From NCBI GenBank assembly GCA_964016885.1, contig OZ024740.1, positions 96,224,001 through 96,288,000 on the forward strand: 64,000 bases of DNA, given 5' to 3'. Source of the stretch: Eledone cirrhosa (taxonomy: Eukaryota). A program made the translations under genes and the position numbers. Numbering within the stretch: the stretch's first letter is position 1; every line of letters begins with the position of its first letter. Shown one piece after another: positions 20,742 through 23,439 of this stretch. The notes under the pieces were generated by a model. That model was not told where the DNA came from and made no database searches. It worked only from the letters and a program-made list of their open reading frames with translations.

Positions 20742-20934
20742 ATATATATATATATATATATATATACATAAATATATATATATATATATATATATATATA
20801 TATATATATATATATATATATATATATATATATATATATATATATATATATATATATATATATATATATATATATATATATATGAGAGACGTAAAATAAG
20901 AAAATTATAAAATTAACTTACTTAATAAAATATC

Positions 20935-21016
20935 ACTTCCAACTAATTAGTTTCTGGAATGGAATAAATATATTTTCCGAAGAAGATACAGTGAAGCATT
21001 CCGTCGTCAGGGAAGT
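20935..21016 (-). ncRNA. Type I hammerhead ribozyme
   Basis: Reverse complement of the 21834-21915 motif. Confidence 0.85.
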
Positions 21017-21458
21017 CTATTCTCATCTAGGTATCCAGGCAAATCGTGGACACTGGAAACTTATTAAAAAATAATTCAGTGGATAGAAAATAGTAAAGCG
21101 TGGACTGAATTCCTAGCCATTGAGAAAATCACTGCCTCTGCGTCGGTGGCAAATTCAAAAAGAATCAATCACGTGACATCGAGGTCAATCAGTGGAAAGT
21201 GATTTGCTAATAAGACAGCGGCCTGCCTGCTACCATAGCAGCAGTCATGGCCAATATTGCTCGACAAATAATTTGGAGATAATTATAAAGAATAAATATC
21301 TAGTAACATATATATATACATACAGATGCATATCAATGCTAGCAAATATATAGGTTTTGTCTTAGTAATTTTGTGGTTCAATGCATGGGGTTGCAGAACA
21401 ATAATATGAGAGACGTAAAATAAGAAAATTATAAAATTAACTTACTTACTAAAATATC

Positions 21459-21540
21459 ACTTCCAACTAATTAGTTTCTGGAATGGAATAAATATATTAT
21501 CCGAAGAAGATACAGTGAAGCATTCCGTCGTCAGGGAAGT
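21459..21540 (-). ncRNA. Type I hammerhead ribozyme (tandem copy)
   Basis: Same motif, 524 nt from the previous copy. Confidence 0.85.
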
Positions 21541-21833
21541 CTATTCTCATCCAAGTATCCAGGCAAAGCGTGGACACTGGAAACTTATTAACAAATAATT
21601 CAGTGGATAGAAAATAGCAAAGCGTGGACTGAATTCCTAGCCATTAATCACTTTCCACTGATTGACCTCGATGTCACGTGATTGATTCTTTTTGAATTTG
21701 CCACCGACGCAGAGGCAGTAATTTTCACAATGGCTAGGAATTCAGACCACGCTTTGCTATTTTCTATCCACTGAATTATTTTTTAATAAGTTTCCAGTGT
21801 CCACGCTTTGCCTGGATACTTAGATGAGAATAG

Positions 21834-21915
21834 ACTTCCCTGACGACGGAATGCTTCACTGTATCTTCTTCGGAAAATATATTTATTCCATTCCAGAAAC
21901 TAATTAGTTGGAAGT
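21834..21915 (+). ncRNA. Type I hammerhead ribozyme
   Basis: Stem I ACTTCC/GGAAGT; CTGACGA 21840-46; stem II GGAATG/CATTCC; GAAA 21896-99; stem III palindrome ACTAATTAGT; GUU site ending 21909. Confidence 0.88.
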
Positions 21916-23439
21916 GATATTTTAGTAAGTAAGTTAATTTTATAATTTTCTTATTTTACGTCTCTCATATTATTGTTCTGCAACCCCATGCATTGAAACA
22001 CAAAGGTACTAAGACAAAACCTGTATATTTGCTAGCATTGATATGCATCTGTATGTATATATATGTTACTAGATATTAATTCTTTATATATATATATATA
22101 TATATATATATATATACATATATGCACACACACATACACACACACGCACACACACACATATTTAATATATATACATATATGTGTGTGTGTGTGTATGTGT
22201 GTGTGTGTGTGTATTTTTATATACGATGGTGCACTCTCTGTTAGATACCCTATACAGATATAGCTTCATCGTATACTTCGGCTCCTAGTGCATTTATTAT
22301 TTATCTTAATTAACTACCAACACGAACGCTATTTATATGCAAATAATTACTTCGGTTTCAGAATAGTACAAATAGAGAAATGGTATACATGAATTACATG
22401 AGACATTTTTCCGTTTGGATACCCCCCTTCTGCAGAGAGGCCAATTGATTCCGAAAATGAATTAAACCTGTTCATCATTTTTTCAATGAGCAGAGAAATT
22501 CCTATTTTACATGCGTAATTATCAAATATGTGTATACACGTTAGTGCAGTCTCGGTTATCAATGTTTATCTATAGAGAAATAAACGTATCGTACCTCTGG
22601 TTATACACTTCTTCATACACACACTCGCGCGCGTGAGCGCAGACAGACACACACACACACACACACACACACACACACACACACAAATATATCTGTTAGA
22701 CACCCAGTGACAAACAACAGAGTGTTTTAATTCTGCGTGTTCTGACAAATATACGTAGCTTGTGATTAAAATATTCAAGGGGTTTCGCTGGCCGTGGTGA
22801 TCTCTGCCAAACATCTTTTGTAATGTATCGTCTTATTGGCTAATTTCATTGTCTTATTGGCTAATCAAACAATTAGAGTAATTGTTGTTCAAAAGCATCC
22901 GAAACTTTGTTTGCACGGTTATTTAATATTTCGCTTTCGAATCTTACTCCTGTATTTCGTCTTTAAACATCAAAAGATTTTTTATCGTTTTGATAAGTTA
23001 TATTGTTAATTTATATAAGAGTTTTTAAATTTATATTAACTATTTTTTTCAGTTTGTTATAACATACTTATAATATTGGCTGTATCATATATACTTGTAT
23101 ATTTGTCTATATTATTGTTCGTTTTATGTTAGATTATTTTATTATTATTATATTAGATTATTTGTTTATTATTACGTTAGGCTATTTCTACGTAATATTT
23201 AATTTTTATTAATCAACTATAACAATTATTATGTAAAATATATTTATTTAATATTGATTGTTTTTTGGAGTTGTTTATATTAAAAGTCTGAAAATTGTTA
23301 TACATCTTACAATACTATTTATAAGATCATTTATACAATAACAATTATATAATCTAATTACATTACAACGATAATTTATTATTAATATATATCATGTTTA
23401 ACTAGAGTTATTACAAATGTTGCCTTAAAAATATTAAAC

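Follow-up and report, generated by a model that had tools for sequence, protein, structure and literature searches.

A non-coding hammerhead repeat of Eledone cirrhosa inserted as two inverted arms, a likely non-autonomous passenger of Hydra-clade PLEs

Animal non-LTR retrozymes are non-coding, AT-rich tandem units that carry one type I hammerhead motif (HHR) each and reach high copy numbers (PMC7229834; 10.64898/2026.07.22.740005). Their mobilisation by Penelope-like elements (PLEs) was proposed in PMC7229834 and argued from pLTR homology in 10.64898/2026.07.22.740005, together with a circular template of the kind we infer here for a family of 522-524-nt units. Insertions of endonuclease-bearing PLEs combine a partial tandem with an adjacent inverted copy, carry a tail at one end and target microsatellites (PMC8557442, PMC3846280), and PLEs of the Hydra clade insert in (TA)n (PMC8557442). 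In the Anolis element PAc, the stretch between two internal RT start sites makes up the tail, each strand of the target undergoes cutting and extension, and the protein is predicted to be a dimer; the HHR lies upstream of the start sites, as it does here (PMC11167929). PLE hammerheads are marked by an extra nucleotide after A9, a long helix II with a G-C closing pair and a palindromic helix III; slow, dimer-type cleavage has been described for them, with predicted dimer function and low activity in vitro (PMC4209133). The excerpts of this literature cited here present two matters as open questions, namely the enzyme that moves animal retrozymes and the origin of the PLE inverted copy and its one-sided tail. 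Our study describes a hammerhead repeat family that, judged from DNA sequence, is real and well supported as PLE-mobilised. We consider it probable that the locus examined here is a two-armed insertion of this non-coding repeat, which would be an animal non-LTR retrozyme, moved by a PLE priming mechanism and likely travelling as a non-autonomous passenger of PLEs of the Hydra clade.

The locus lies in a 3.0-Gb genome, within a 64,000-nt stretch that was analysed as a whole (the window; contig OZ024740.1, positions 96,224,001 to 96,288,000) and is rich in microsatellites and PLE fragments. It is a single insertion in (TA)n, composed of a 766-nt minus-strand arm and a 440-nt plus-strand arm that meet head to head with their 3' ends outward. 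Its parts, in window coordinates, are as follows.

20107..20743: neighbouring, separate insertion, a two-armed end remnant of family N (a Hydra-type PLE), L end left and S end right
20735..20883, no strand: left (TA)n target tract
20880..21645, minus: arm 1, roughly 1.5 units in 766 nt, ending 3' at the short (S) site, where it runs into (TA)n
20935..21016, minus: downstream copy of the type I HHR motif, with cleavage predicted between 20941 and 20940
20941..21464, minus: predicted 524-nt monomer, site to site, non-coding, putatively released
21170..21175, with a second copy at 21675-21680: CACGTG in a block conserved between subfamilies, a possible promoter element
21259..21279, minus: bulged hairpin 2 (UCUC-C-stem-G-UC-GAGC), which follows the internal L site (about 21284) by 4-5 nt
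21376..21399, minus: bulged hairpin 1 (GUUC-U-stem-A-UU-GAAC), which follows the internal S site (about 21404) by 4-5 nt
21459..21540, minus: upstream copy of the type I HHR motif, with cleavage predicted between 21465 and 21464
21645..21646: head-to-head junction, both arms 5'-truncated
21646..22088, plus: inverted arm 2 of about 440 nt, ending 3' at the long (L) site
21834..21915, plus: inverted copy of the type I HHR motif, with its H17 at 21909
22085..22123, no strand: right (TA)n target tract

The S end of arm 1 sits about 60 nt beyond the predicted cleavage site, and arm 2 carries a 118-nt tail (about 21970-22088), since it ends at the L site. An earlier note on this DNA had drawn attention to two minus-strand HHRs 524 nt apart with a perfect stem I and a GUU site, and to a third copy in inverted orientation, and had called the unit between the tandem pair non-coding and retrozyme-like. 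These observations hold. The 3' strands of stem I end at 20935 and 21459 and the CUGACGA cores start at 21010 and 21534; stem I pairs ACUUCC with GGAAGU over 6 bp, the GUU triplet places H17 at 20941 and 21465, and the third copy occupies the plus strand at 21834-21915. The longest stop-free frame of the 524-nt unit is 52 aa in sense and 59 aa in antisense, reading round the circle included. The term retrozyme-like is apt for a tandem unit that codes for no protein, carries a type I HHR under structural selection and was dispersed by retrotransposition. The inverted copy and the outer ends, a PLE insertion signature that the note overlooked, are more informative than the tandem pair.

We mapped 186 distinct insertions of the family, having left out three that a locus edge truncated and three that were duplicates; the three pairs that later inserts had separated went into the one-armed count. 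Most of the insertions (133 of 186) had been chosen by an S or L junction pattern, and because each of these was picked by one junction, its other end was free to vary. Outer ends fall at S, +61 from the predicted cleavage site, or at L, +179, the two being 118 nt apart. Among the 113 two-armed insertions, 99 pair one S with one L end, none has S+S or L+L, and 14 have an irregular end, while the 73 one-armed insertions divide into 37 with S and 36 with L. A partial tandem with an inverted, 5'-truncated copy is thus the layout of 113/186 insertions; either arm may be longer, and arm lengths are uncorrelated (rho -0.15). Exact junctions number 1,120 for S and 385 for L genome-wide. The outer flanks are TA-rich in 150/175 cases, in line with microsatellite targeting, and both end sites terminate in ATA/TATA, matching the target. 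Autonomous PLEs of this genome obey the same S+L pairing, namely 11/11 two-armed insertions of family N and 5/5 inspected insertions of a Neptune-type family. In its layout, the two-armed family is the "inverted copy plus tail" pattern of PLEs.

Several features set it apart from the systems described. Unlike endonuclease-bearing PLEs, it has no ORF, and its tail is 118 nt rather than 30-40 (PMC8557442, PMC3846280). In the excerpted accounts of these elements the tail is optional or often at one end, whereas here regular two-armed copies strictly have one end of each kind. PAc belongs to the Poseidon clade, its start sites are placed in an AC-rich stem-loop and lack homology to the target, and the excerpts of PMC11167929 report no difference between strands; in contrast, the ends of the 522-524-nt family match the target, with one of each site per insertion. 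A literature search with supplements, Repbase and PMC5785218 outside its scope turned up nothing published about this family, a strict pairing of one short with one long end, or a hairpin pair.

The hammerhead itself reads, in order, ACUUCC (stem I), CUGACGA, C, GGAAUG (stem II), a 35-nt loop, CAUUCC, A, GAAA, CUAAUUAG, UU and GGAAGU. CUAAUUAG forms a palindromic stem III of 3 bp, and loop II is a 35-nt stem-loop extension. The core had been described as canonical, which is mistaken: a C after A9 and an A before G12 make stem II open with a C.A mismatch, and since the two bases are opposed and unpaired at the stem base, the junction is not canonical. With this C.A and the 35-nt loop II, the motif departs from canonical geometry (paired 10.1-11.1, short stem II, loop 1-loop 2 contact). 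Across the whole window, Rfam models gave no hit of any kind at gathering score, and only unrelated weak matches, none of them an HHR, at E<=10; a descriptor scan of the same stretch returned these three HHRs and four weaker matches. The C.A is retained in 170 of 171 distinct copies and U17 in all 171. Active HHRs with a U.U mismatch in the same place are known (PMC3088659, PMC7229834), and our literature search found no activity test of C.A there, a point that PMC5785218 may cover. Mussel retrozymes lack most tertiary-contact bases and Li et al. (10.64898/2026.07.22.740005) accept minimal HHRs, so noncanonical geometry is no bar to membership. The motif shares the extra nucleotide after A9, the long, G-C-closed helix II and the palindromic helix III with PLE hammerheads as described in PMC4209133, but differs in the second unpaired base (A) before G12, the 35-nt covarying apical stem-loop and the invariant U17. 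The HHR therefore bears features of the slow, dimer-type PLE ribozymes, its cleavage being predicted.

Copy variation indicates that the RNA structure matters. The six pairs of stem II are 96-100% paired across the 171 copies, with swaps at two of them: pair 2 is G-C in 95, A-U in 59 and C-G in 15, and pair 5 is U-A in 124 and G-C in 41. The apical stem within loop II covaries too. In 28 copies chosen for diversity, 91% of cells are paired, compared with 32-49% for slid structures; cells with double changes number 55 against 22 in shuffles, a value that 0/500 shuffles reach, and the covariation score likewise exceeds all 500, whereas the count of pairs with double changes is not above shuffles (108/500). 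As the structure was drawn from the same, related sequences, these figures are support and not a probability. Stem covariation persists across subfamilies down to 74% identity. By this pattern of compensatory change, the HHR is under structural selection.

Predicted folding is less favourable. Isolated HHR copies fold no better than shuffles (z -0.5 to +0.2), and in a 746-nt precursor the hammerhead fold is a predicted minor state, with stem I pair probabilities of 0.04 and 0.02 and a cost of 3-9 kcal/mol for the active fold. Folded as a circle, the unit is more stable than its shuffled versions (z -3.6, n = 40), and the HHR is not formed in the predicted circle. The palindromic stems III are predicted to be able to pair between HHR copies (-10.8 kcal/mol). 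Of the Xenopus retrozyme dimers, only 1/9 cleaved in vitro according to 10.64898/2026.07.22.740005.

The family is large. Exact matches to a 21-mer core number 1,891 genome-wide (reversed control 0), far more than chance would give, and a looser HHR pattern gives 10,616 (controls 0). The unit measures 522-524 nt, 522 nt being the commonest length (30/65) and 524 nt that of this locus. With more than 1,000 insertions, the family is non-coding and has a type I HHR in every unit of its tandems, a GC content below 50% and many dispersed copies, as retrozymes do. Three sequence runs, being contigs from one sample, contributed copy diversity only. The best other copies are 98% identical to this locus. 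The near-identity noted earlier is borne out, as the direct copies agree at 97% over 242 nt, but its reading as recent activity needs tempering: units within an insertion differ by about 2%, or about 1% each since insertion, and with that drift the copies are young, yet not brand new. A 551-nt subfamily, 74% identical, is represented by a copy with two HHRs at 46415-47364 of the window; that copy sits in the (TA)n tract that follows a Neptune-type PLE copy (46200-46321) at its S end. None of the loci fetched held an ORF-bearing copy flanked by the 522-524-nt unit. A search for RNA-editing scars found no sense-strand A>G excess (50 A>G vs 65 T>C, P 0.93).

Compared with animal retrozymes, the unit is longer than the 170-400 nt of tested circles but within the 51-972 bp range of Li et al. 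(10.64898/2026.07.22.740005). Its HHR is of PLE type, its copies are mostly dispersed and two-armed with two fixed ends, and no pLTR match to it was found among the three PLE families examined. Plant LTR retrozymes are a different arrangement, with type III HHRs in LTRs and a 4-bp target duplication, in place of the type I HHR, absence of LTR layout and (TA)n ends found here. On genomic features, the 522-524-nt family would work like an animal non-LTR retrozyme, with cleavage and circles predicted.

A further feature is shared with a family of autonomous elements. In both the 522-524-nt family and family N, a common fold begins 4-7 nt after S and after L: (G/U)YUC, one pair, a variable stem-loop, a two-base bulge and GARC. 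Within the 522-524-nt unit its start positions are 65 and 185; a single overlapping alternative falls at 37, and the antisense strand has none. Read-through copies have it after S in 305/346 and after L in 139/186 cases, and family N in 17/20 and 8/8; a 465-nt HHR family has it in 2/2, against a background of 37/8,506, and overlapping loci are among those counted. It is missing after both ends of the intact Neptune-type family (tail 41 nt, S+L kept). The paired hairpin signal is not mentioned for PLEs in the excerpts of PMC8557442 and PMC3846280.

Family N is an autonomous PLE with a single ORF, insertion in (TA)n, a tail of about 88 nt and 17,389 S junctions genome-wide; intact 713-aa frames were present in six copies fetched for that length. 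Its protein has RWR, NKT, CxCX5C, CxxC, CxH and YRDD motifs and a GIY-YIG-like strand, and it matches the features of the Hydra clade, namely the RWK motif, DKT for DKG, a CxCX5C linker, no CX2-5CxxC, and an endonuclease with CxxC and CxH. By these motifs family N would belong to the Hydra clade, and the protein gave no Pfam match at E<=0.01. Counting against this placement, no CUGANGA or UUGANAA core was found near its ends, although Hydra elements are described with a canonical HHR. A hammerhead look-alike with CAGAAGA instead of CUGANGA occurs just before its S site. A second family N remnant lies in the window at about 39457-39728 and 40940-41200.

Family N and the unit have no alignable sequence, with matches of only 12-22 nt (E>=0.025), and pLTR homology to the unit was absent from the three PLE families examined (family N and two others). 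Two hybrid insertions, both of which obey S+L, join families. In one (L160), the L arm of a 522-524-nt copy, without its TA tract, is joined to the S end of family N; in the other (L017, L225:4761-5288), the S end of the 522-524-nt family meets head-to-head the L end of the 465-nt HHR unit, which has both hairpins. These are thin evidence, amounting to 2/75 one-armed insertions that neighbour-fusing deletions could also produce, and an arm of the 522-524-nt family was found at 0/30 family N loci. The same bulged hairpin occurs 18-120 nt before (TA)n tracts elsewhere in the window (35870-35897, 37346-37373, 43960-43991, 29147, 44396, 50657 and 10546-10564), where it probably marks the ends of other Hydra-type families. 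The hairpin therefore points to a clade and not to one partner, and family N is a candidate supplier of the enzyme.

Two other partners were considered and dropped. An intact two-ORF Neptune family has no sequence in common with the unit and lacks the hairpin, and the HHR of a GC-rich Neptune family, which likewise has no sequence match, is a different, minimal one. The two-ORF Neptune-type family, with S and L 41 nt apart, showed no canonical HHR; a broken two-armed copy lies at 3082-7265 of the window, and the family has many intact 784-aa copies. The GC-rich Neptune-type PLE (L176-L186) has a classic minimal HHR, and many of the query-fragment matches show one in-frame TGA.

Taken with the fixed ends, these data suggest a mechanism. 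A PLE protein, probably a dimer, would bind two copies of the bulged hairpin on one RNA and cut both strands of a (TA)n tract. One cDNA would be primed just upstream of hairpin 1, at S, and the other just upstream of hairpin 2, at L; both would continue through the HHR site, often repeatedly, and halt at scattered positions, after which the truncated ends would be joined head to head via short overlaps. The template would, slightly more likely than not, be a ligated circle produced by slow, dimer-assisted HHR cleavage. Architecture, fixed ends, the S+L rule, hairpins, covariation, shared alleles and read-through are observed in the sequences, whereas the enzyme, the priming, the cleavage and the circle are inferred. 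Stated in its most specific form, a dimeric Hydra-clade PLE protein reads two hairpins on one small circle, primes both (TA)n strands and rolls round, the tail being the hairpin spacing, and the hairpin pair, rather than pLTR ancestry, serves as a portable signal for unrelated ribozyme circles; we offer this only tentatively. The family provides a candidate enzyme with intact copies, a candidate signal of 21-24 nt and a strict prediction of one S and one L end per RNA. If right, the proposal would define a two-hairpin cis signal for two-ended, RNA-templated insertion.

The evidence on the template comes from alleles and stops. Opposite arms of an insertion agree on minor alleles in 153/193 comparisons and successive units in 187/229, against 15% between insertions, and both arms copied the same unit bases in 54/57 insertions. 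Alleles private to an insertion are common to at least two units in 12/52 insertions, this locus among them; they number 26 (11 in one array), of which 13 are present in all units. The HHR site was passed in 207/222 arrivals (93%). Shared alleles and read-through together imply that the template was continuous across the site, either a ligated circle or an uncleaved multimer, and they fit both alike. In the window of -3 to +3 around the site, fixed beforehand, stops number 7 against 3.9 expected (P 0.10, not significant). From 0 to +10 they number 16 against 6.4 (P 9e-4), a post hoc figure from the best of 48 windows that is partly explained by ATAT microhomology at +6/+7; one insertion (L304) has both arms ending there. 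The first sample had no excess from -3 to +10 (3 vs 3.4), whereas the second did. The excess just inside the site hints that some templates had been cleaved.

The strongest alternative keeps the PLE mobility and replaces the circle with an uncleaved linear multimer transcribed from a few master arrays, the HHR cutting rarely or only trimming 5' ends from host transcripts. The 93% read-through is equally compatible with it, stops from 0 to +10 are in modest excess, those of both arms of L304 among them, and the mean run before stopping is about 370 nt. Furthermore, unprocessed RNA is the main template of the anole PLE in vitro, where HHR cleavage is not needed (PMC11167929). A possible master is an arm that holds an array of 15 units or more (L052 with L109, G000:C1:94665926-94674330), far longer than the mean run, which could also be a long rolling-circle product. 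Against the multimer, private alleles common to successive units or both arms suit repeated copying of one unit, and stem covariation has been maintained across subfamilies to 74% identity. We regard the multimer as possible but the less probable template, and we lean towards the ligated circle.

The earlier note proposed more for this locus, namely that it is transcribed on the minus strand, cleaves efficiently at both HHRs and yields a 524-nt circular RNA. Both cores are intact and in tandem, the predicted pairing of stems III between copies and the z of the circular unit are favourable, and coral, mussel and axolotl retrozymes behave in this way (PMC7229834). However, the arm extends no more than about 105 nt beyond the upstream HHR on its 5' side, and transcripts begun upstream of 21729 would cross the inverted arm and pair with it over up to 336 nt, so that the upstream HHR would be buried in duplex. 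The core is atypical with its fold a minor state, and the copies hold private mutations acquired since insertion. Production of the monomer would need a start near the junction, which the conserved CACGTG block at 21675 could supply. We consider such efficient production unlikely, and this locus a doubtful source of the monomer.

The two priming events at the centre of the preferred reading might also be replaced by fold-back self-priming of one cDNA, which would produce the inverted arm, with the tail left by endonuclease trimming. Self-priming with endonuclease resolution has been proposed for PLEs (PMC3846280, PMC8557442), and in 9/113 junctions the end points of the two arms lie within 8 nt of each other on the unit, several of them at small palindromes. 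For the remaining 104 junctions, however, the arms stop at unrelated positions, and either arm may be the longer one with no correlation of lengths. An L arm is not copyable from an S-ended cDNA without a new template, the two cross-family hybrids require two templates, and PAc uses two RT start sites with both strands extended in vitro (PMC11167929). This origin is therefore improbable, slightly more so than the efficient circle source just discussed. The inverted layout and the lack of an Rfam match might suggest a satellite or a MITE-like inverted repeat formed at the DNA level, whose hammerhead is fortuitous or dead; this reading is contradicted by the fixed 3' ends, random 5' truncation, unequal arms, TA targeting and compensatory RNA-stem changes, and we give it almost no weight.

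Two minor observations concern other motifs in the window. On the minus strand at 33940-33990 there is a compact type I HHR-like motif with an 8-bp stem I, an A.A at the base of stem II and a GUC site, which adjoins a Pif1 helicase fragment at 33396-33836. Additionally, two overlapping splice-donor-like GTAAGT motifs occur on the minus strand at 21445-21453, just after the HHR, and are retained in most subfamilies. Introns near the HHR are known in PLEs.
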